Shown here: positions 27,067 through 58,370 of the stretch, piece after piece | Layout: every line of letters starts with the position of its first letter | Position numbering within the stretch: the stretch's first letter is position 1 | Virus record (IMG/VR): IMGVR_UViG_2932454522_000002 | Span: 1-64,000 of that record | Source of the DNA: a virus | Lineage: Duplodnaviria > Caudoviricetes | DNA length: 64,000 bases | Direction: 5' to 3' (one strand) | Made by a program: the position numbers and the translations under genes | The notes under the pieces: model-generated | Seen by the model: the letters and a program-made list of their open reading frames with translations, nothing else | Database searches by the model: none | What the model was told of the DNA's origin: nothing

Positions 27067-27579
27067 TTAGGTGGGGCGGGCGGCGACGAAGAGTCCCCGG
27101 CCCGACTCGAAGACGAGCAGGCCCTCGCGCTGTAGTCGAGCGGACGCCTTGCTGACGATCGGCTGGCTCGCGCCAGTCGCTTCGGTCATGCGTCGGATCG
27201 ACGGGAGGCGTTGCCCGGGTCTCCATCGGCCGGCTGTGATCTCGCCGCGGATGAGGCCTGCGACCTGCTCGATCTTGCTCCCGTAGGTGACGGTCGGCCA
27301 GGCCGCCGGGTCGAACTCGGCTTCGTCGTAGTTGTGAGTGCCGTTGTAGAGCGGCTTCTCGGTCTCGATCGCGATCTTCTCGGCGGCGAGTGCGAGCTTC
27401 CGCGTGTCGCGCCACTCATCGGTTCGTCGAACGGCCCGCTTCGGCCAGTCGTCCGGCCTCGACTCGTACAGGTGCGCCTTGCTACGGAAGGCGGGGTCGT
27501 TCGAGATCCCGACATAGAGCAGGACGTCATCGGCGTCGAAGTATCGGTAGAGCGCGGTGCGCTGCTCGGATTCAGGCAT
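27067..27579 (-). CDS. GIY-YIG nuclease fused to a GntR-type wHTH
   Basis: ALYRYFD..LLYVGIS..AEKIAIETEKPLYN, then IRGEITAGRWRPGQRLPS..GRGLFV. Confidence 0.8.
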   Translation of the reverse strand: MPESEQRTALYRYFDADDVLLYVGISNDPAFRSKAHLYESRPDDWPKRAVRRTDEWRDTRKLALAAEKIAIETEKPLYNGTHNYDEAEFDPAAWPTVTYGSKIEQVAGLIRGEITAGRWRPGQRLPSIRRMTEATGASQPIVSKASARLQREGLLVFESGRGLFVAARPT

Positions 27580-27730
27580 GGAACCCCTCGACCTATTGGG
27601 CACTGGCGTTCCACGTGGATGTTGTGCGTACAGTTGGTGCCGAGCATGCAGGCAGAACTAGCCCGCTGACCTGCATCTCTACCGTCAGTGGCAGTGCGTA
27701 AACGTGGAACTACTGGAATAGACGGTCCTC

Positions 27731-27805: not shown

Positions 27806-28564
27806 TTGGCGAGCAAGAAGGGCGACGACAGCCTGGGGTACGAGGCGATCGCCGACCAGCTGCGAGCCCGCATTGAGAGCGGCGAACTCGCGCCCGGCGA
27901 CAAGGTTCCAGGCGAGAACGGGCTCATGGAGACGCTGGGTGTCAGTCGAGACACCGCCTCAAAGGCTCTGCTGATCCTTCGCAACCTGGGGCTGACCGAG
28001 GCTCGACAGGGGGCCCCAACCCGCGTTCGTAAGTTCCAGCGCATCGTTCGGCCGGCGAACAAGCGGCTATCAAAGGAAGTCTGGGGTTCCGGGCGGTCGG
28101 TCCAATCTGCGGACGTCGTCGAGGGGCAAACGAAGCCCACTGGCCTCCGCATTGACCGGGTCCCTTCGGATGCCCGGGTCGCCCAGATGCTCGGGATCGA
28201 GGAAGGGGCGGCGGTGGTCGTCCGGGACCGAAGCTATGTCCTGGGGGTTAAGCCCGTGATGCACGCCGTGTCGTACATCCCTGCGGATCTGGCAGACGGG
28301 ACCGCGATCGCCGAGGAGGACACTGGCCCCGGAGGGATCTGGATGCGACTGGATGACATCGGGCACGGGCCGACACTGTTCCGCGAGGAGGTTCGCTCGC
28401 GGATGCCGAGGAAGGTCGAGCAGGAACTGCTCAAGATTGAGATCGGCACTCCCGTGATGGAGATTCGACGCTTCGCGGCCGAGGAGTCGGGTCGGATTGT
28501 CGAGGTGAACGAGATGGTTCTGGACAGTTCCAGCTACGTTCTGGAGTACGTGATCCCGTCCTGA
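27806..28564 (+). CDS. GntR/UTRA repressor (KorSA-like)
   Basis: YEAIADQLRARIESGELAPGDKVP HTH; UTRA C-terminus with DTGPGGI. Confidence 0.88.
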   Translation: MASKKGDDSLGYEAIADQLRARIESGELAPGDKVPGENGLMETLGVSRDTASKALLILRNLGLTEARQGAPTRVRKFQRIVRPANKRLSKEVWGSGRSVQSADVVEGQTKPTGLRIDRVPSDARVAQMLGIEEGAAVVVRDRSYVLGVKPVMHAVSYIPADLADGTAIAEEDTGPGGIWMRLDDIGHGPTLFREEVRSRMPRKVEQELLKIEIGTPVMEIRRFAAEESGRIVEVNEMVLDSSSYVLEYVIPS

Positions 28565-28608: not shown

Positions 28609-28631
28609 CATGCCTGGTTCCAGCTTGGACG

Positions 28632-28692
28632 TTGACTTCCACGTGGAAGTAGGCGCACTCTTGGAGCACACGGAAACTTCCACGTGGAAGTT
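28632..28692 (+). promoter_or_regulatory. Transfer-operon promoter with two ACTTCCACGTGGAAGT operators
   Basis: TTGACT -35 overlaps palindrome 28635-28650; second palindrome 28675-28692. Confidence 0.78.
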
Positions 28693-28732
28693 CCAGGAGT
28701 TCCAACCTGCCTACCAAGACCCGGGAGTCTCC

Positions 28733-28978
28733 TTGAGTCACGATGCCCCGGCCGCGGACACCGTGGCCCCCTCCCCGAACTTCCTCAACGCGGCCGAGGT
28801 CGCCGAGCGCCTCCGCGTCTCGCGATCCACCGTCTACAACCTGATCACCGCCGGCCAACTCCCGGCCATCCGCAACGGGGTCGGCAAGATCCGCCCCCGT
28901 GGCGTGCGAGTCGCCGAGAACGTCGTCGAGGCCTACCTGAACAACTCCCTCATCACTCCCGCCGAGGAGGCAGCGTGA
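28733..28978 (+). CDS. Excisionase-family HTH protein
   Basis: FLNAAEVAERLRVSRSTVYNLITAGQLPAIR. Confidence 0.8.
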   Translation: MSHDAPAADTVAPSPNFLNAAEVAERLRVSRSTVYNLITAGQLPAIRNGVGKIRPRGVRVAENVVEAYLNNSLITPAEEAA

Positions 28979-30842: not shown

Positions 30843-30976
30843 TGTTCGGCCGGAGGCGCGAGGACGCGCAGCAGCGGCCGGAGCCGTCGGCGTACCGGCC
30901 GGGTGTCGATGTCGAGGCGATGGAGGACACGCCGCGGCAGATCTGGGGTCCGGATGACGACGAGGACGGCAAGTGA
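30842..30976 (+). CDS. Small acidic protein
   Basis: Coupled at both ends. Confidence 0.5.
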   Translation: MFGRRREDAQQRPEPSAYRPGVDVEAMEDTPRQIWGPDDDEDGK

Positions 30977-31419
30977 TGTCCGGCGTGTCGACGGCCCGGT
31001 CGGAGGCCCAGTCGCTGATCGCCCGGGTGGACAGCAAGGCGAGTCTGCTGCTCGCGTTCAATGGCGTGGCTCTGGCTGGCTTGTGGTCGGCGGGGCATGG
31101 CGTCGAGTTGGCGCCGCTGCCGCTCACGATGACGGTGGGTGCCGGGCTGGCGTTCCTGGCGTCGATCGTCGTGGCGCTGTGGACGGTGCGCCCGCGTCTG
31201 GGTGACGGACGCTCCGGCTTCCCCTTGTGGGCGTCGCTGTCGGCGGACGCGGTGGAGGCGCTGCTGCTGGCCGAGCAGGAGGGCCCGCATGTGGTGGCCC
31301 TCTCGAAGATCACCGTCAAGAAGATGCGCGCCTTCACCCTGGCCATCGACCTGACTCTCACCGGCATCGGCACGGCCGTTCTCGCCGCCGCGATCCAGGC
31401 CGCCACATCCCTGTTCTGA
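30973..31419 (+). CDS. Pycsar-effector-family (DUF5706-like) membrane protein
   Basis: IARVDSKASLLL..TM..WTVRPRL..LSKITVKKM..TM. Confidence 0.75.
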   Translation: MMSGVSTARSEAQSLIARVDSKASLLLAFNGVALAGLWSAGHGVELAPLPLTMTVGAGLAFLASIVVALWTVRPRLGDGRSGFPLWASLSADAVEALLLAEQEGPHVVALSKITVKKMRAFTLAIDLTLTGIGTAVLAAAIQAATSLF

Positions 31420-33737: not shown

Positions 33738-35042
33738 ATGACCGCCACTGCCGCCGAGAAGCAGGTCAACGGAACACCGAAGACCTCGCCTGAGCACCGC
33801 TTTGACCCGCGGGCGCTGGCCGAGGCGGAGGCGATCCGGACCAAGGCTGCCGCCGAAGCCGAGGCTGTGCGCATCAAGGCCGAAGGCGAAGCCGACGCCG
33901 CCCGCACCCTTGCCGTCGAGCAGGCCAAGAAGGACCAGCTCGCCAACGAGCGCAGCAAGATCGCGCTGGAGCGGAAGAAGGTCGACCACGACGCCTACGT
34001 CGCCAAGAAGGCCGCTGAGACCGCCAAGTCGCGTGCCGACAAGGAGAAGGCCGAGAAGGCGGAGGCTGCCCAGGCCGAGCGGGAGGCGCAGCTGGTTGCC
34101 GACCGGGAGCGTTCCGAGCGGTACTGGAAGTGGGGCGCGCGCGGCATCTACATCGTCGGCCTCGCCCTCGCCGGACCGGTGCAGTTCATGCACTTCTGGG
34201 ACCCCAAGCGGCCGTTCCTCATCGCCGCCCCCGCCCTCCTCGAAGGCTTCGCGCTGGTCCTCGCGTTCGGTGCAGCGTGGGCCGTCGCGCACCGCCGGGA
34301 TGTCACCCCCTATCGGATCGGCATCATGCTCGGCGCGATCGTCGCCGCCGCCATCAACCTGTACGGCGGCATGTCCGACGAGGAGATCGGCTTCAACGCC
34401 GGCCTCATCGGCGCCATCGCATCCATCGGCGGCCCGATCGTGCTCATGACCTACGAGCGTGGTGTCGCGCAGAAGGCTGACGGTGAACCCTCCCGGCGGG
34501 AGAAGAAGGCCGCCGCGAAGGAGGCTGCGGCGAAGGCTGCCGCGGACGCGAAGGCGCGGGCCGAGAAGGCGCTCGCTGATGAGAAGGCGGCAGCCGACAA
34601 GAAGATCACCGAGGAGCGGGCCGTAGCCGAGCAGCAGCGGCGTGACGACGATCGCCGCACCGGCCACCCCGAGGTGTGGAAGGTCGCCGACTCCATCCGA
34701 TCCGCGCGCGGTTCGCAGTACGTCACCGAGCAGATTTGGGCCGAAGCCTGGTACCGCGTCACCGGCTTCAAGCAGGTCGGTGTCGACCTTGACATCGACG
34801 CTCAGACGCGGGCCGCGGATGCTCGCGCGAAGACCGCCGAGCAGGCCCCCGTATTGGGATCTTTCTCGCTGGTCGAATCCCAACGACGCCCCGGCGCGAA
34901 GAAGGACCCGAACCAGCCCGACGGGCGCCGCAACAACGGCGGCACGCCCCCCATCCGCAGGGCCGGCGACAGCGAGCCCAACCACCCCATCGCGCGGGCC
35001 CAGGCGCGCGCCGAACGGACCACCGAGAAGGACTCGAAGTGA
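33738..35042 (+). CDS. Coiled-coil, four-TM spread protein (SpdB-like)
   Basis: Four TM segments between coiled coils; coupled to the TraB-like gene. Confidence 0.7.
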   Translation: MTATAAEKQVNGTPKTSPEHRFDPRALAEAEAIRTKAAAEAEAVRIKAEGEADAARTLAVEQAKKDQLANERSKIALERKKVDHDAYVAKKAAETAKSRADKEKAEKAEAAQAEREAQLVADRERSERYWKWGARGIYIVGLALAGPVQFMHFWDPKRPFLIAAPALLEGFALVLAFGAAWAVAHRRDVTPYRIGIMLGAIVAAAINLYGGMSDEEIGFNAGLIGAIASIGGPIVLMTYERGVAQKADGEPSRREKKAAAKEAAAKAAADAKARAEKALADEKAAADKKITEERAVAEQQRRDDDRRTGHPEVWKVADSIRSARGSQYVTEQIWAEAWYRVTGFKQVGVDLDIDAQTRAADARAKTAEQAPVLGSFSLVESQRRPGAKKDPNQPDGRRNNGGTPPIRRAGDSEPNHPIARAQARAERTTEKDSK

Positions 35043-37174
35043 GCATAGAGAGGATGCCGAGTGCGACGCCGGACCCGGAGTGGGAGCGGCTAGTCGCGGA
35101 CCTCCGCAACGACCCCGACGCCGAGCCCGCCCTCGCATCCGCCCGCCCGGCTGCGGTCGCCAAGTCGGCGGTCGCGGACCCGATGGGTGACGCGCCGCTC
35201 CGCCCCGCCTGGTCGCGAACTGCCGACGGATGGAAGGCCCGCACCACGGTTGGCCGCGTCAACAACGTCCGCCGGTTCCGCAAGTGGGTGCGCCGCCAGC
35301 GCACCGAGCACGGGCACGGCGCCCAGACGTACCGCGGGCTGCGGCGGGCCATCGTGTGGGTGCAGGGCACCGAAGGCGCACAGGTCACCACAGCGCGGCA
35401 CGAACTGCTGCAGACGCAGCGGGACTACAAGTCCGCGAAACGGGCGCACGATCGACGGCTGCTGCCAGGCAAGGAGAAGGACGCGCGGCGCCGGAACATG
35501 GAGGACGCGTTTGACCACTCGCTCAAGGCGATGGGCAAGTACAAGTCCGCCCACCGTGACGCTCGACTGCGCCGACTCTGGCGCGGGGCCCTCGCCCTCA
35601 CACCGGTCGCCGGCGCCGAAGGGGCTGGCATGTACTTCCTCGGCGGCACCGGCGGGCTCCTCGCCACCGGATCGACGGCGCTCGCCCTGGCCCTCATCGG
35701 CCGCCGTACCACCGCGGGCGAGCTGTACGCCGACCAGGACGCGAAGATCGGCAACGGGGACCGGATGACCGACAGCATGGTCAACCGCGTCTACCGCAGC
35801 GCCAAGGTTATCGCCGCGGACGACGAGGTGAAGCTGCTGTCGCCGTGCACGCTCACCGCCGACGGTTCCGCCTGGGAAGTGCGCCTCGAGCTGCCCGACG
35901 GCATCCCCGCCTCCAAGGCCCTGGGTGCGACCGCCCAGCTGGCCAACGGGTTCGGCGTCAGCGTTCAGCAGGTGTCCCAGGTCAAGGGGGCCCGCGAGGA
36001 CTGGCTGACCCTGCGCGTCACCCTCAAGGTCCCGTTCACTGGCGAGGCCCACAAGGGGCCGCTCCTGACTGCAGGCGAGGTCAGTCTGTGGGACCCCGCC
36101 CCGATGGCGGTGTCCGAGCGAGGCGACATCGTGGCCGTGGAGTGGTTCGAGAAGACCGCCCTGTTCGGCGGAGAGCCAGGCAGCGGGAAATCGGCGGCGG
36201 CTAACAATCCGCTGCTGCTGGCGGCCCTCGACGTGCGCGCCGACCTGTATCTGGGTGACGGCAAGGGCGGCTTCGATGCGACGCCGTTCGAGCCGATCGC
36301 CCAGATGATCGACACCGCGGGAGACCCAGCGGCGCTGCTCGCCATCCTCCGACACGTATGGGAGGACGTCCTGCCCGGACTGAAGCAGGTGGTCAAGGAC
36401 CACCGGGTCCGCAAGTTCTCCCGCGCGCTGGCCGCCGAGGACGAGCGAGTCCGCTGGACGGTCCTGTTCATCGACGAGTGGGCGTCCTACATGGCTGCCG
36501 CCACCCAGGAGCAGCAGAAGGAGCTGGAGAGGCTCCTGCGGCTGATCACGCAGCAGAGTCGCGCCTACGCGGGTCTCGTCATCGCGGCCACGCAGAAGCC
36601 CGACTCCAACGCCGTCCCCACCGGCATCCGCGACATCCTCTCCACCCGCTGGGCCGGGCGCTGCATGACTCCCGAGGCGTCCGACACGATCCTCGGCAAG
36701 GGGCGGGCCTCCGCCGGCTACAACGCGCAGCGGATCCTCAAGTCGCAGCGCGGCGTGGGCTATCTGCAGACCGGCGAGACGTCGGAGCCCGTCCTCACGC
36801 AGTCGTTCTTCTACGACGATGACGAGGTTGAGGCGATCCTCCGGCGGGCCTACAACCTGCGCGCCGCGGCTGGTGTGCTGCCGGTCGCAGTCGAGCAGAA
36901 GGTGACGATCCTCGATCACATGATCAAGGCGGCTTCCGCGACCGGCCGCGGGGTCGCCACCCGGGCTGAACTGTTCGCTCACCTTGCCGCCGTCGACTCG
37001 GAGTACGCGCGGCCTGACGGGGAGAGTGACGCCGCCTACAACGCTCGCGTCGGCCGTCTGCTCGCCGCGGCCATGACCGACGAAGGCATCGACGTGGAGG
37101 CGGTCAAGGTCTCCACCGGCGACGGCGGCCGGTCGATGGGGTATCGCCTCGAAGACCTCAACGACGCCCGATAG
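35039..37174 (+). CDS. traB: TraB-like FtsK/SpoIIIE conjugative DNA translocase
   Basis: N-terminal TM; Walker A GEPGSGKS; DGKGG; Walker B VLFIDE; ATQKP; C-terminal wHTH-like region. Confidence 0.85.
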   Translation: MSIERMPSATPDPEWERLVADLRNDPDAEPALASARPAAVAKSAVADPMGDAPLRPAWSRTADGWKARTTVGRVNNVRRFRKWVRRQRTEHGHGAQTYRGLRRAIVWVQGTEGAQVTTARHELLQTQRDYKSAKRAHDRRLLPGKEKDARRRNMEDAFDHSLKAMGKYKSAHRDARLRRLWRGALALTPVAGAEGAGMYFLGGTGGLLATGSTALALALIGRRTTAGELYADQDAKIGNGDRMTDSMVNRVYRSAKVIAADDEVKLLSPCTLTADGSAWEVRLELPDGIPASKALGATAQLANGFGVSVQQVSQVKGAREDWLTLRVTLKVPFTGEAHKGPLLTAGEVSLWDPAPMAVSERGDIVAVEWFEKTALFGGEPGSGKSAAANNPLLLAALDVRADLYLGDGKGGFDATPFEPIAQMIDTAGDPAALLAILRHVWEDVLPGLKQVVKDHRVRKFSRALAAEDERVRWTVLFIDEWASYMAAATQEQQKELERLLRLITQQSRAYAGLVIAATQKPDSNAVPTGIRDILSTRWAGRCMTPEASDTILGKGRASAGYNAQRILKSQRGVGYLQTGETSEPVLTQSFFYDDDEVEAILRRAYNLRAAAGVLPVAVEQKVTILDHMIKAASATGRGVATRAELFAHLAAVDSEYARPDGESDAAYNARVGRLLAAAMTDEGIDVEAVKVSTGDGGRSMGYRLEDLNDAR

Positions 37175-37182
37175 ATCCCGCT

Positions 37183-37335
37183 TTGACCCTGGACAACAGC
37201 CTGGACAGAGCCTGGACCGGCCTGGACAGGAAGGGGCTGACCCTGGACACCTCGTCCAGGGTCAATCCAGAGGAGTCCACTCTCCGTCCAGGCTCCCACA
37301 TGCACAAACGCGCCCGTGTCCACGCTCTGTCCAGG
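37183..37335. repeat. clt-like locus: CCTGGAC(A) repeats
   Basis: Direct copies at 37188, 37200, 37211, 37221, 37242; inverted at 37254, 37286, 37328; directly after the traB stop. Confidence 0.75.
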
Positions 37336-37366
37336 CAATAACGACACCCAACCCGAAGGAGAACCC

Positions 37367-37540
37367 ATGGAGATCCACAAAGACGGCACCACTGCCGGAG
37401 ACCTCACCGCCATCTACGGCATCGGCATCGTCGCCATGCTGCGCGGCGGCAAGCTCACCACCAAGCAGAAGCGCCGCCTCGAACGACGCCGCGACGCCAT
37501 CGAGGCCCGCGGACGCGCCAACCGCAACAGCCGGAGCTGA
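37367..37540 (+). CDS. Small basic protein
   Basis: AAGGAG SD. Confidence 0.6.
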   Translation: MEIHKDGTTAGDLTAIYGIGIVAMLRGGKLTTKQKRRLERRRDAIEARGRANRNSRS

Positions 37541-37558
37541 ATCCCAGGAGGGACACCC

Positions 37559-37645
37559 ATGCAGGACATCAGCAACCTGATCACCGACCCCCAGCCGGCC
37601 ACCGGGACCCCCGACGCCGAGCCCGTACTCCAGCCTGCCGCCTGA
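37559..37645 (+). CDS. Small peptide (28 aa)
   Basis: AGGAGG SD. Confidence 0.4.
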   Translation: MQDISNLITDPQPATGTPDAEPVLQPAA

Positions 37646-37661
37646 GACCGAGAGGACCGTC

Positions 37662-38222
37662 ATGACCACGCCGCCGTCCAGGCCGCACCCGACCGACAAC
37701 CTCGCGGCCGGGCAGCGGCAAGTATCACCGCAGACACAGCAGATGATCGACGAGGTCGAGGGGGTCTACAGCACTCCTGATCCCGTCGTTGATGCCAACG
37801 TCGACCAGTCGATGAGGCGGGCCAAGGAGGAGGGCGTCAGCCCTCTCGCCGTCATCGGCAGCACGCCCGCCGTCGACCAGCCGGGCCGCCCCTCGATGAG
37901 CCAGAAGGGTGTCGACGACAGCGTCCGGATGCTGTGCGCCTCTGTGCTCGCTGTCGCCGTCGGCGGCGCCGTCTCCGGAGCCCTCTACTTCTCCGGCAAG
38001 GCGGACCCCGTCGTCGTCGGCCTCATCGCCGCCACGCCGCCCGCGACGTTCCTCTCTATCCGGAGCGTCGTAAAGAGTGCCAAGCGCCTCATCCCTGACC
38101 AGCACACCCACCGCTACGAAGGTCCCGTGATCCAGGACAACCGACAGGACCACAGCACCCAAGAGATCAAGACCAAAGGCATCTGGACCAAGGTCACCAA
38201 CAATCCGAAGGGGAAGCCATGA
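37662..38222 (+). CDS. Two-TM membrane protein (spread-associated)
   Basis: TM pair; HTHRYEGPVIQD motif. Confidence 0.65.
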   Translation: MTTPPSRPHPTDNLAAGQRQVSPQTQQMIDEVEGVYSTPDPVVDANVDQSMRRAKEEGVSPLAVIGSTPAVDQPGRPSMSQKGVDDSVRMLCASVLAVAVGGAVSGALYFSGKADPVVVGLIAATPPATFLSIRSVVKSAKRLIPDQHTHRYEGPVIQDNRQDHSTQEIKTKGIWTKVTNNPKGKP

Positions 38223-55276: not shown

Positions 55277-56907
55277 TGCCCTGGATGCCGCCGGAGCCGG
55301 GTGCAGTTCCAACCCTCGGGTACGACGTCATCGACTGGATCTCCGAGATGCTTGCCGCCCCGGACCGGGGTGACTATGAGCCGTTCGTTCTGTATCCGGA
55401 GCAGGAAGACTTCGTGCTCCGTTACTACGAGCTCGATCCGCGCTCGGGTAAGCGCCGGTTCCGGCGTGGGGTCATCAGTCGCCCGCGCGGGTGGGGCAAG
55501 TCGCCTTTCCTGGCCGCTCTAGCGATCGTCGAGGCTCTGGGTCCGGTCGTGCCCGACGGGTGGGACGCGGAGGGGCAGCCGGTCGGGAAGCCGTGGTCGG
55601 AGGTGCGCACTCCGCTGGTGCAGATCGCGGCGGTGTCGGAAACGCAGACGAAGAACACCTGGACCCCCCTCCTGGAAATGCTCCAGGGGCCGGTCCTGGA
55701 TGAGTATCCGGGCTTGGAGCCGCTGGACACGTTCGTCAATCTGCCCCGTGGCCGTATCGAGCCGATCACTTCGTCGGCACGGACGGTGAAGGGCAACAAG
55801 CCGGTCTTCGCTGTGCTGGACCAGACCGAGGAGTGGGTGCGCTCGAACCGCGGGAACCGGCTGGCCGAGACGATGCGTATCAACGCCGCCAAGGTGGGCG
55901 GCACGACGATCGAATCGCCGAATGCTTTCATTCCTGGCGAGGGGTCGGTGGCCGAGGAGTCGGCCGCGTTCTGGGCGAAGATCCGTGAGGGCCGGGCTCG
56001 GGATGACGGCCTCTTCTATGACCACCGCGAGGCTCCTCCGGAAACGGACATGACTGACCGGCAGTCGCTGACAGCCGGATTGGCGTACACCTACGGCGAC
56101 TCGGCTGACCGCAATGGCGGCCATGTCGATCTGGACACGATTGTCGCGACGATCTGGGACCCCAGTACCGATCCTCAGACGGCTCGCGCCGACTTCCTGA
56201 ACCAGATCACGCACGCCTCCGACTCGTGGATCTCCCAGCCCGAGTGGGCGGGGGTGGCCGCGGCGGACAAGGTCGTGGGCCGCGGCGAGGAAGTCGTGCT
56301 CGGGTTCGACGGTTCACGGCGGCGCAATCGCGGCGTGACGGATGCGACGGCCCTGGTGGGGTGTCGCGTCTCAGACGGTCATCTCTTCCTGCTGGGCTGC
56401 TGGGAGCAGCCGGACGGGCCCTTCGGCCAGGACTGGCAGGTGCCGACGGTGGAGGTACTTGCCGCGGTTGAGGACGCGTTCCGCGACTACAAGGTGGTGG
56501 GGATGTACGCCGACCCGGCCCGCTGGGAGTCGCACGTCGCGAAGTGGGAGGCGGATCACGGGCGGCGCTTGAAGCTCAAGGCGTCGACTCAGCACCCGAT
56601 CGAATGGTGGATGACCGGTGGGCGCTCAAGCCACATTGTGCGGGCGCTGGAGAAGTTCCGGTCCAGCGTGGTCGACGGCGAGCTCACCCATGACGGGTCG
56701 AGCGTGATGACGAGGCACATCCTCAACGCGCGACGCCGCGAGTCCCGCAGCGGAATTCAGATCATGAAGGAACACCCGGACAGCTCGAAGAAGATCGACG
56801 TCGCGGTTGCCGCCGTTCTCGCGTGGCAGGCCCGAGTCGACGCCATGGCCAAGGGGCTCGGCAAGAAGAAGGCCGGCAGGCAAGGACGGGTGGTGGTGCT
56901 GCGATGA
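55276..56907 (+). CDS. Terminase large subunit
   Basis: RPRGWGKSP Walker A; QIAAVS; LGFDGS; KIDVAVA. Confidence 0.93.
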   Translation: MPWMPPEPGAVPTLGYDVIDWISEMLAAPDRGDYEPFVLYPEQEDFVLRYYELDPRSGKRRFRRGVISRPRGWGKSPFLAALAIVEALGPVVPDGWDAEGQPVGKPWSEVRTPLVQIAAVSETQTKNTWTPLLEMLQGPVLDEYPGLEPLDTFVNLPRGRIEPITSSARTVKGNKPVFAVLDQTEEWVRSNRGNRLAETMRINAAKVGGTTIESPNAFIPGEGSVAEESAAFWAKIREGRARDDGLFYDHREAPPETDMTDRQSLTAGLAYTYGDSADRNGGHVDLDTIVATIWDPSTDPQTARADFLNQITHASDSWISQPEWAGVAAADKVVGRGEEVVLGFDGSRRRNRGVTDATALVGCRVSDGHLFLLGCWEQPDGPFGQDWQVPTVEVLAAVEDAFRDYKVVGMYADPARWESHVAKWEADHGRRLKLKASTQHPIEWWMTGGRSSHIVRALEKFRSSVVDGELTHDGSSVMTRHILNARRRESRSGIQIMKEHPDSSKKIDVAVAAVLAWQARVDAMAKGLGKKKAGRQGRVVVLR

Positions 56908-58370
56908 CCATCTCCATCCCCGATCTGCCGCTGTTGACGTTGTCGGACGATGAGCTGGCCCTGATCAACGTGCTGCGGGGGGAGATGCAGCGTGACCGCT
57001 ATGCGCTGATGGTGCGGGACGCCTACTTCAACGGCGAGCAGCTGGTCCGTGACCTTGGCATCAGCATCCCGCCGCAGCTCAAGGGCCTACATACGGTGAT
57101 CGGCTGGCCGCGGGTGGGCGTCGAGTCCTTGGAGGAGCGCCTCGATCTGGAGGCGTTCCGTTGGGCTGACGGTGCGGACTCGGCCGAGTTGGCGGAGATC
57201 GCCGAGGCGAACGACCTGTTCGACGAGTCGAGCCTCGCGCACCTCGATGCGCTCACCTACGGCCGCGGCTATCTCGCTGTCGGTTCCGGTGACTGTGGCG
57301 GCGAGGATTGCCCGCCGCTGATCTCGGTGGAGTCGCCGCTCGACATGACGCTGCTGTGGGATGCCCGGCTGCGCATGGGCACGGCGGCACTGAGGGAGTG
57401 CCAGCTCGACGGGTATGTGGAGTTGGGCCCCGATGAGCGGATGATCGTCCTGTATCTGCCGGACCAGACGGTGACGGCGATCCCGTCGACGTCTGGTGGT
57501 TGGGAGGTTGTCGACCGCGACCCTCACAACCTGGGTGTTGTGCCGGTGGTGCGGATGGCGAACCGGCAGCGGACGTCCGATCGTGTGGGTCGCAGCGAGA
57601 TCACCCCGGAGGTCATGTCCATCACGGATGCCGCTTGCCGGCGCCTGATGGGCATGGAGGTGGCGGCGGAGTTCTTCGGTGCCCCGCAGCGCTACATCCT
57701 CGGCGCGTCGGAGTCGGCGTTCCAGGACGCGGACGGCACGGCCAAGTCGGCGTGGGAGACGTATATCGGCCGGGTTCTCGCCTTGGAGCGGGACGAGGAC
57801 GGCAATGTGCCGACGGTCGGCCAGTTCGCCGCGCACGATCCGACCGGCATGACGAAGATCATTGACCTGTATGCGCGGATCATGTCGGCGCAGTTCGGTC
57901 TGCCACCGCACATGCTCGGCTACACCACAGACAACCCTGCTTCTGCGGACGCGATCCGGAGCACGGAAGCCAAGCTGGTCAAACGCTCCGAGCGGCGCAT
58001 CCGTCGTTTCGGCGCCTCCTGGCAGCAGGCTATGCGGCTCGCCCTGTGGGTGCGCGATGGTGAGCCTCCGGACAAGACGCGCCGTATCGAGACGGTCTGG
58101 CGCAACCCTGCGACACCGACCGTGGCGGCCCAGGTGGACGCCACCGTGAAGTTGGTGCAGGCAGGCGTGCTTCCCGCGGACTCCGACGTGACGCTGGAGA
58201 TGGCAGGCTTCACCGAGGCCCAGCGGCAGCGTGTTGCCGCCGATCGTCGCCGGTCGAGTGCCGCGGCTACCGGTGGCGGACTGTTGGACCGACTGGCCGC
58301 CGTGAACGACCAGCAGGCAACCAGCCTGCCGGACGTCGCGGAGGTGACCGGTGCCGACAACGGTCTCTGA
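56904..58370 (+). CDS. Portal protein
   Basis: Follows TerL; GRSEIT, NPASADAI, WRNPATPT. Confidence 0.93.
   Translation: MTISIPDLPLLTLSDDELALINVLRGEMQRDRYALMVRDAYFNGEQLVRDLGISIPPQLKGLHTVIGWPRVGVESLEERLDLEAFRWADGADSAELAEIAEANDLFDESSLAHLDALTYGRGYLAVGSGDCGGEDCPPLISVESPLDMTLLWDARLRMGTAALRECQLDGYVELGPDERMIVLYLPDQTVTAIPSTSGGWEVVDRDPHNLGVVPVVRMANRQRTSDRVGRSEITPEVMSITDAACRRLMGMEVAAEFFGAPQRYILGASESAFQDADGTAKSAWETYIGRVLALERDEDGNVPTVGQFAAHDPTGMTKIIDLYARIMSAQFGLPPHMLGYTTDNPASADAIRSTEAKLVKRSERRIRRFGASWQQAMRLALWVRDGEPPDKTRRIETVWRNPATPTVAAQVDATVKLVQAGVLPADSDVTLEMAGFTEAQRQRVAADRRRSSAAATGGGLLDRLAAVNDQQATSLPDVAEVTGADNGL

Follow-up and report, generated by a model that had tools for sequence, protein, structure and literature searches.

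A candidate clt-type TraB recognition array with the core word CCTGGAC in a putative Streptomyces prophage

TraB-mediated conjugation of double-stranded DNA is known from Streptomyces plasmids and integrative elements, and only a few recognition words have been defined. The subject of this study is a set of short repeats that directly follows a traB gene in a stretch of 64,000 nucleotides, hereafter the window. The window is the first 64 kb of the 87.9-kb IMG/VR virus record IMGVR_UViG_2932454522_000002, which is classed as a provirus. The repeats probably form a clt-type loading array for TraB, with CCTGGAC as core and A-S-CCTGGAC-A as extended unit, in a temperate phage or prophage.

Passages of PMC4170104 and PMC4447253 describe TraB hexamers that assemble at clt, where the C terminus recognises 8-bp repeats, and PMC4447253 notes a close resemblance of TraB to FtsK/SpoIIIE. 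For the clt loci of pIJ101, pJV1 and pWTY27, passages of PMC3583192 report both inverted and direct repeats, and a footprint of the pWTY27 Tra protein on its own clt. By the same description, these plasmids resemble the window in carrying short direct and inverted repeats beside the tra gene and differ from it in their words, which are TGACACC, a 5-bp pIJ101 word and CCGCACASS. For pSAM2, the archetypal actinomycete integrative and conjugative element (AICE), no recognition word has been described, according to a passage of PMC9513070.

The window shares with the plasmids pSVH1 and pSG5 a homologous TraB motor, a GntR regulator on the same element, and an array directly after traB. In all three the array comprises direct units, a two-unit palindrome with arms of 12-14 bp, inverted units and a (T/C)(G/C)ACCTGC-type box, with ~10.5-bp phasing. 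Three differences separate the window from the Streptomyces venezuelae plasmid pSVH1. The word CCTGGAC has one extra T in mid-word compared with GACCCGGA(C), the TraB C-terminal domain is of a different sequence type (22% identity over 81 aligned columns), and the carrier is an 88-kb genome, probably of a phage, rather than a 12.6-kb rolling-circle plasmid. We take the post-traB stretch of pSVH1 to be the mapped clt and the repeated word found there to be the published TraB recognition sequence (TRS) of Vogelmann et al. 2011.

A further parallel is FtsK gamma and the FtsK orienting polar sequences (KOPS). There a hexameric double-stranded DNA pump uses a C-terminal winged helix to read a polar 8-bp word that orients loading, and the same would hold for TraB. 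KOPS are dispersed along the chromosome, whereas here about ten words lie within 150 bp in two opposed blocks. For the TraB C-terminal domain no sequence match to FtsK-gamma was found, nor a fold match among those listed.

The repeat array and the TraB protein

The features of the locus are as follows.

35039-37174, + strand: traB, encoding an FtsK/SpoIIIE-type double-stranded DNA translocase of 711 aa (P0001), identified by homology to pSVH1 TraB
36866-37171, + strand: TraB C-terminal domain (residues 610-711), with a predicted winged-helix fold, the candidate reader of the repeat units
37183-37249, + strand: direct half of the array, five exact CCTGGAC units
37238-37264, no strand: central palindrome TGACCCTGGAC-N5-GTCCAGGGTCA, the point where orientation switches
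37254-37335, - strand: inverted half of the array, exact units at 37254, 37286 and 37329, degenerate units at 37275 and 37318
37293-37310, + strand: conserved non-repeat box CTCCCACATGCACAAACG, between both inverted pairs
37367-37540, + strand: small open reading frame (ORF) of 57 aa after the array, with GGAG ahead of its start

The traB stop codon, TAG, occupies 37172-37174, and the first CCTGGAC unit lies 14 bp farther on. A first-pass annotation of the window had reported five direct and at least three inverted units from that point, and the exact positions bear this out: direct units start at 37188, 37200, 37211, 37221 and 37242 on the + strand, and inverted units at 37254, 37286 and 37329 on the - strand. 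Two degenerate inverted units were identified in addition. GTCCACG at 37318 has one mismatch, and GTCCACT at 37275 has two, with exact units at the aligned position in relatives. The array totals 5 direct and 5 inverted units (8 exact, 2 degenerate GTCCAC) within 37188-37335. The inverted half is organised as two 19-nt pairs, 37275-37293 and 37318-37336. The palindrome that had been noted at 37238-37264 was also confirmed, its 11-nt arms (37238-37248 and 37254-37264) being 100% complementary. A 12-nt arm, TTGACCCTGGAC (37183-37194), also pairs with 37254-37265.

The recognition sequence was originally taken to be the octamer CCTGGACA. The CCTGGAC core survives and the strict octamer does not. 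The full octamer is exact in only 5 units (4 direct, 1 inverted), and the consensus of 48 exact-core units from the 7 loci that share the word (described below) is A-S-C-C-T-G-G-A-C-A, with A in 38/48, C or G in 48/48, C in 46/48, then CTGGAC, and A in 30/48. The window contains 6 octamer matches where 2.15 are expected, a count of 6 being reached by 5/100 shuffles. Its count by itself is weak evidence, and significance rests on clustering. A span of 148 nt holds 8/20 of the CCTGGAC copies in the window and 8/26 of those in the whole 87,926-nt record. When the 26 matches were placed at random 100,000 times, the maximum was 4 per 150-nt span. A Poisson estimate gives ~2e-17 per span, or ~2e-12 once multiplied by the record length. 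Chance does not account for the cluster.

The remaining CCTGGAC copies are dispersed over the record, and the pair read at 1905/1926 consists of Leu-Asp codons within an ORF. Chance Leu-Asp codons fit that pair and do not fit an intergenic cluster. Within the array the centre-to-centre spacings of the units are 12, 11, 10, 21, 12, 32, 32 and 11, which are near multiples of ~10.7.

Two small ORFs were considered and set aside. Apart from the window, L015 alone has the 57-aa ORF after the array; in the remaining CCTGGAC loci the array leads directly into a common downstream gene, and the 57-aa product was rejected as a unit-specific binder on that ground. A 52-aa ORF across the repeats (37183-37341) is open in the window and in 5/6 other CCTGGAC loci, and closed in L024 and most loci with other words. 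It was rejected, an open frame of ~170 nt being no rarity at 68% G+C.

The product of the gene next to the array, P0001, matches pSVH1 TraB with 38% identity over 637 aa (BLASTP, E 3e-100), and the similarity stops where the C-terminal domain starts. In a tblastn search of 72,556 plasmid records 33 were matched, all at <60% identity, including pSVH1 (NC_007431.1) and pSG5 (NC_008792.1), whose TraB matches span 85-91% of the length of P0001. P0001 also matches phrog_1358, 'FtsK/SpoIIIE-like protein' (E 6e-93), and weak sequence matches in the PDB were obtained to a conjugative coupling protein (3e-5) and FtsK (9e-4). The TraB alignment shows conservation of the Walker A segment GGEPGSGKS and of DEW in the Walker B region. 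A hydrophobic stretch visible at about residues 184-221 of the translation may be the N-terminal segment through which a TraB associates with the membrane. On these alignments P0001 is a genuine Streptomyces-type TraB. Against five relatives, traB dN/dS is 0.17-0.43, and that of the C-terminal 96 codons is 0.25-0.48. By these ratios the gene, which is intact, is under purifying selection.

The C-terminal domain was modelled with AlphaFold2 from an 11-sequence alignment. The model of residues 610-711 has a pLDDT of 90.2 and the topology H-S-H-H-S-S-H, that of a winged helix. A Foldseek search of the PDB gave no match at E <= 0.001 (all E >= 0.08), the weak top matches being forkhead and other winged helices. 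VIA-align returned forkhead domains with Z 5.1-6.2 over 71-84 aligned residues, then the winged helices of ORC/Cdc6, PafBC, histone H5 and PadR. The domain is a predicted winged helix, the middling scores indicating the fold class only.

Layout and repeat words of related loci

A protein search with TraB at E <= 1e-10 yielded 165 homologues, the great majority of them from Streptomyces or metagenomes. Those that have a name are called only 'FtsK/SpoIIIE domain-containing', 'ATP-binding' or hypothetical proteins, with one LAGLIDADG homing endonuclease. Among 50,697 phage records no homologue of TraB was found with megablast or tblastn. The loci compared with the window comprised 7 from viral contigs (L008-L014), 11 from genomes (L015-L025), pSVH1 (L026) and pSG5 (L027).

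The top 7-mers in the 270 nt past the traB stop were counted without bias in the window and the 20 loci, 21 sources in all. A single 7-mer dominates in 19/21, L010 being ambiguous and L016 lacking intergenic space. The word CCTGGAC was found in the window, L008, L011, L015, L019, L020 and L024. The words CACAGGG/CCGCACA occur in L009, L012 and L018 (L012 and L018 are identical), ACCCTGCCC in L017, CCCGTCC in L013, L021 and L023, and CCGGACG in L014, L022 and L025. After pSVH1 traB the top 7-mers are CGACCCG, ACCCGGA and CCCGGAC, that is, the repeated word of its clt region, and after pSG5 traB the top word is CCCGGAC. The inverted units CGCACAG of L009, L012 and L018, sister loci of the window, resemble the pJV1 word CCGCACA(C/G)(C/G) as quoted in a passage of PMC3583192.

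Orientation was scored in 18 arrays, L010, L016 and the duplicate L018 being excluded. All 18/18 switch from direct to inverted units, and the switch is strict in 17/18, including pSG5; pSVH1 has one unit out of order. The switch had been called unusual at first, which does not hold for these arrays, nor for pIJ101, pJV1 and pWTY27, whose clt loci are likewise mixed according to PMC3583192. For 108 pooled spacings, the vector strength peaks at R = 0.83 with a period of 10.5-10.75 bp; the loci are related, and the pooled phasing is a descriptive value that carries no P-value. A central palindrome built from two units is common, with a perfect stem of >= 8 bp in 11/19 sources and of 14 bp in pSVH1.

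A counterpart of the box CTCCCACATGCACAAACG (…GACCTGC…) is found in the other word groups, in pSVH1 and pSG5, and in the plasmid CP075612.1. The box stays constant while the repeat word changes between loci. It may be used by a conserved factor or as a promoter element. In an alignment of the 7 CCTGGAC loci most of the invariant columns belong to the units or the box, and the majority of spacer columns are variable, even with a traB dS of ~0.6 between the window and L015. CP075612.1 was the sole match at E <= 1e-3 among the 72,556 records to the C-terminal domain of the window's type (47% identity), and it has the identical layout with CCNGGACA-like units. From these alignments, the post-traB region is homologous in layout to that of pSVH1 and pSG5.

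Two sequence types can be told apart in the last ~100 residues of TraB. One, the pSVH1/pSG5 type, has a 'WLPG' segment and is paired with CCGGAC-type words, a more divergent version going with CCCGTCC. The window TraB carries the second type. All 7 CCTGGAC loci have the helix SDxAYNARVG(R/K)xLA and the wing DGGRSMGYRL(E/D)DL, and the CCCTGTG loci (such as L009 and L012), L017 and L010 each have a helix and wing of their own. Relative to the window, L019 and L020, with the word CCTGGAC, have a motor identity of 61% and 57% and a C-terminal domain identity of 67% and 71%. L010, L017, L009 and L012, with other words, are 79-82% identical in the motor and 45-58% identical in the C-terminal domain.

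Maximum-likelihood trees were built from 20 rows, without L016. The CCTGGAC label requires 6 changes on the motor tree, at least 3 of them forced by well-supported branches. On the C-terminal tree it requires 2, and only 1 in 60% of bootstrap trees. For all eight labels jointly, the motor tree requires 9 changes and the C-terminal tree 7, and 7 is the minimum possible. Within this comparison, the domain that the repeat word follows is the C-terminal winged helix, and not the motor. The suggestion in the first-pass annotation that the repeats are a clt-like array beside traB thus gains from both the pSVH1 homology of TraB and this covariation. The gene after the array encodes a product with a PPVPQPGRPPMS segment and is common to loci with different words, so that this product is not the specific reader of the units.

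Six TraBs of the phage family (L013, L014, L021-L023 and L025) combine a C-terminal domain of the pSVH1/pSG5 type with motors that lie in the phage-family clade. Three of these six loci use CCGGACG units, near the pSVH1 word. On the C-terminal tree, the domains of this type from phage-family loci cluster with those of pSVH1 and pSG5 (100/100 support); the motors of the same loci do not. This grouping points to exchange of a cassette made up of the domain plus clt between plasmids and the phage family. Cross-mobilisation between the two would then be a possibility.

L016 (NZ_JBEOTZ010000006.1) stands apart in the length of its traB, ~970 codons, which includes an intein-sized insertion. It has 27 nt to the next gene and no array there. 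P0037, a 1063-aa member of the cluster, is the one named LAGLIDADG homing endonuclease. Length and name suggest an intein inside TraB.

Outside the arrays, tandem pairs of the form CCTGGAC-N3-5-CCTGGAC were counted in four related host genomes. There were 7-12 against 3-5 for the reversed control, a weak enrichment. Most pairs have 12-nt spacing, which is compatible with coding sequence. Among the places listed, the only pairs at or beside clt were those of L015 and L024, besides two overlapping 12-nt pairs (three units) at G003:C34.

Proposed mechanism and alternative roles of the array

Two further genes of the window belong to the comparison with pSVH1 and pSG5.

27806-28564, + strand: GntR/UTRA regulator, a candidate repressor of the TraR/KorA kind (Pfam GntR 3e-16, UTRA 1.2e-19)
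33738-35042, + strand: 434-aa ORF immediately upstream of traB, in the position that SpdB2, of similar size, holds on pSVH1

Homologues of the GntR/UTRA regulator are encoded on pSVH1 (34% identity, E 8e-23) and pSG5 (E 1e-16), and we take these genes to be traR. The 434-aa ORF has no Pfam, NCBIfam or PHROG family, and in BLASTP its match to pSVH1 SpdB2 is weak (E 0.026 across 57 aa). Spd proteins are described as poorly conserved in a passage of PMC4170104.

From the layout, the homologies and the covariation we infer TraB binding, transfer and use of the module by the phage. In the proposed mechanism, the units would lie on one face of the helix at ~10.5-bp spacing and would be read by the C-terminal winged helices of membrane-bound TraB hexamers. 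TraB would assemble at the array on the double-stranded phage genome and pump it into a neighbouring hyphal compartment or a recipient. The TraR-like GntR repressor would govern the transfer module, and the phage genome would gain a route of spread that is independent of virions. The initial view that retention of the array suggests a functional system is plausible: with traB intact and under purifying selection and a TraR-like GntR gene nearby, the module may be a working one.

Several observations weigh against a TraB loading array in a temperate phage. Pfam FtsK_SpoIIIE (PF01580) scored 17.8 bits on P0001, under the cut-off of 24, and an NCBIfam search gave no family for TraB, nor for its neighbours. 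Structural matches of the C-terminal domain are middling (Z <= 6.2, Foldseek E >= 0.08), and FtsK-gamma was not among the matches listed. The C-terminal domain and the array lie <100 bp apart, and linkage together with recombination breakpoints upstream would also cause the two to be inherited together, which makes the covariation strong evidence and not proof. The loci are related, and their counts are not independent events. The genome of the closest TraB (L015, 83-85% identity) has no match to the portal protein of this record at E <= 1e-10; the traB module is therefore not tied to this phage type and occurs in other settings too. The 88-kb genome is far bigger than the 12-kb pSVH1 and pSG5. 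Finally, the region in single-stranded form folds into a long hairpin (-87.8 kcal/mol, z = -6.05, 0/200 shuffles as good). Such a hairpin is expected because any array of direct plus inverted repeats folds in this way, and the region may nevertheless have a role in RNA or single-stranded DNA.

One alternative is that the units are operators for another DNA-binding protein that controls downstream genes, such as the TraR-like GntR protein, the HTH_17 protein (28610-28978) or a downstream product. Phased repeats around a core box do resemble autoregulated centromere/operator arrays, the array ends ~30 nt ahead of the ribosome-binding site of the next gene, and several regulators are encoded nearby. 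We felt that this explanation was unlikely nonetheless. The word tracks the last ~100 residues of TraB, the downstream gene is common to loci with different words, and no sigma-70-like promoter was found in 36900-37700. In addition, passages of PMC4447253 and PMC3583192 describe the homologous pSVH1 region as bound by TraB.

It is a little harder still to credit that the dyad region acts mainly in RNA, as a hairpin that terminates or stabilises the traB transcript, with the repeats as a by-product of stem upkeep. The minimum free energy given above is in its favour, as are the central stem of 11 bp (dG -20.7 kcal/mol) right after the stop codon and the perfect stems of >= 8 bp in 11/19 sources. 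A T-rich tail, however, follows 0/19 hairpins, and a terminator scan was empty at the palindrome. In 8/19 sources the best perfect stem is only 5-7 bp and the arrays are still kept. A stem needs no 4-5 tandem, helically phased copies per arm, the unit spacings of one half do not mirror those of the other, and a hairpin leaves the tracking of the word with the TraB C terminus unexplained. An RNA role is also compatible with TraB loading, and would be more an added function than a replacement.

Although a two-block set of phased 10-11-bp repeats is typical for iterons and some centromeres, and relatives of the head module sit on circular 88-92-kb plasmids, it is very improbable that the array represents replication-origin iterons, a partition centromere or a packaging (pac) site of a phage or phage-plasmid, since no ParB_N domain was found in the record, the DnaB and sliding-clamp-like genes are 15-30 kb off and the terminase genes 17.5 kb off, and the same layout is found after traB on pSVH1 and pSG5, plasmids that lack phage genes and whose rep gene is annotated separately.

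With TraB loading as the preferred role, the word CCTGGAC is apparently new. It is not among the four clt words quoted in PMC3583192. A full-text literature search for CCTGGAC with TraB and Streptomyces returned nothing on topic, judged by title, and searches for a phage-borne clt or TraB found no such report. The related loci form a natural series in which one motor lineage is combined with at least five words, each with a distinct C-terminal helix and wing, and this opens the protein-DNA recognition code to direct tests. The presence in a phage genome of a transfer module that seems complete is relevant to the spread of temperate phages in mycelial hosts, and to the role of the 'FtsK-like' genes of Streptomyces phages, which a passage of PMC13587820 mentions only with regard to host development. 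By analogy with the plasmid systems, the module suggests that virions are not the only means by which the phage genome can pass between cells.

A more ambitious proposal, which we regard as doubtful in its entirety, joins three elements: a temperate Streptomyces phage lineage with a regular TraR-TraB-clt module, an exchangeable winged-helix/clt specificity cassette, and two opposed TraB hexamers. One TraB lineage does use at least five words, and one of its C-terminal types is common with pSVH1-type plasmids. Under this proposal the module would move a double-stranded genome of 60-90 kb between hyphal compartments and strains without virions, and the cassette would decide which co-resident elements mobilise each other. 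The opposed, phased layout would load two oppositely oriented hexamers, each pumping one arm, and the covalently closed circle would be threaded as a loop from clt.

The carrier element and neighbouring genes

Small and large terminase subunits, portal and major head protein are encoded at 54.8-60.8 kb of the record. A DnaB-like helicase, a clamp-like protein and a YqaJ-type recombinase lie at 4-15 kb, and a protein with a resolvase domain at 80.4-81.8 kb. Neither a tyrosine integrase nor a ParB_N domain was found in the record. Phage genes flank the traB module on both sides, and from 28 to 64 kb the gene calls are almost all on the + strand like traB. In 5/10 other records or genomes with a traB relative, the portal has a match at E <= 1e-10. 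In three of these five (G004/L021, G006/L009 and G008/L013) a portal 73-75% identical to that of the window lies ~9-12 kb beyond traB, and the repeat words differ; the distance in G004 assumes that the portal contig is that of L021. On this gene content, our best reading of the carrier is a temperate Streptomyces phage or prophage.

A nested AICE as the source of the module was rejected. The record has no tyrosine integrase, and in 3/10 other records the portal lies 9-12 kb past traB. No replication-initiator or integrase family was found in two scans of 10 ORFs each, one of them with ORFs from 25.7-55.3 kb. A nested AICE may still be the origin in L015, whose genome is without that portal.

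The portal of the window (56823-58370) is 85-87% identical to the portals of the circular 88-92-kb Streptomyces plasmids NZ_CP109578.1 and NZ_CP108705.1. The latter carries ParA/ParB and a PhlD-type polyketide synthase in the style of pZL12, as a pZL12-like phage-plasmid. It has no detectable homologue of this TraB, and the present record differs in turn as a provirus without ParB_N. Going by the title of a 2010 report by Zhong et al., pZL12 is reportedly both phage and conjugally transferable. In passages of PMC4487206 and PMC3583192, pZL12 (and pSLE1) is described as a Streptomyces plasmid-phage with both properties, and pZL12 so described is a precedent for a transferable phage.

Other genes of the record include a 148-aa ORF (30973-31419, + strand) that matches PycTM, a transmembrane effector domain of Pycsar anti-phage systems (E 1.4e-8), and this may be a prophage-borne defence gene. 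Past the tail genes, a 547-aa ORF (record positions 78432-80075, + strand) has a TROVE (Ro60-like) domain (E 5.5e-12). The resolvase-domain protein (record positions 80384-81838, - strand) has 484 aa, of which residues 205-252 form a phage zinc-binding domain and residues 282-419 the resolvase catalytic domain. It was the sole recombinase found in the record. Its resolvase domain is unusually distant from the N terminus, and the start codon may be mis-set. Two further putative regulators adjoin the TraR-like gene: a second GntR-domain protein is encoded divergently from it at 27067-27603 (- strand), and an HTH_17 (excisionase/MerR-like) protein shortly downstream at 28610-28978 (+ strand).

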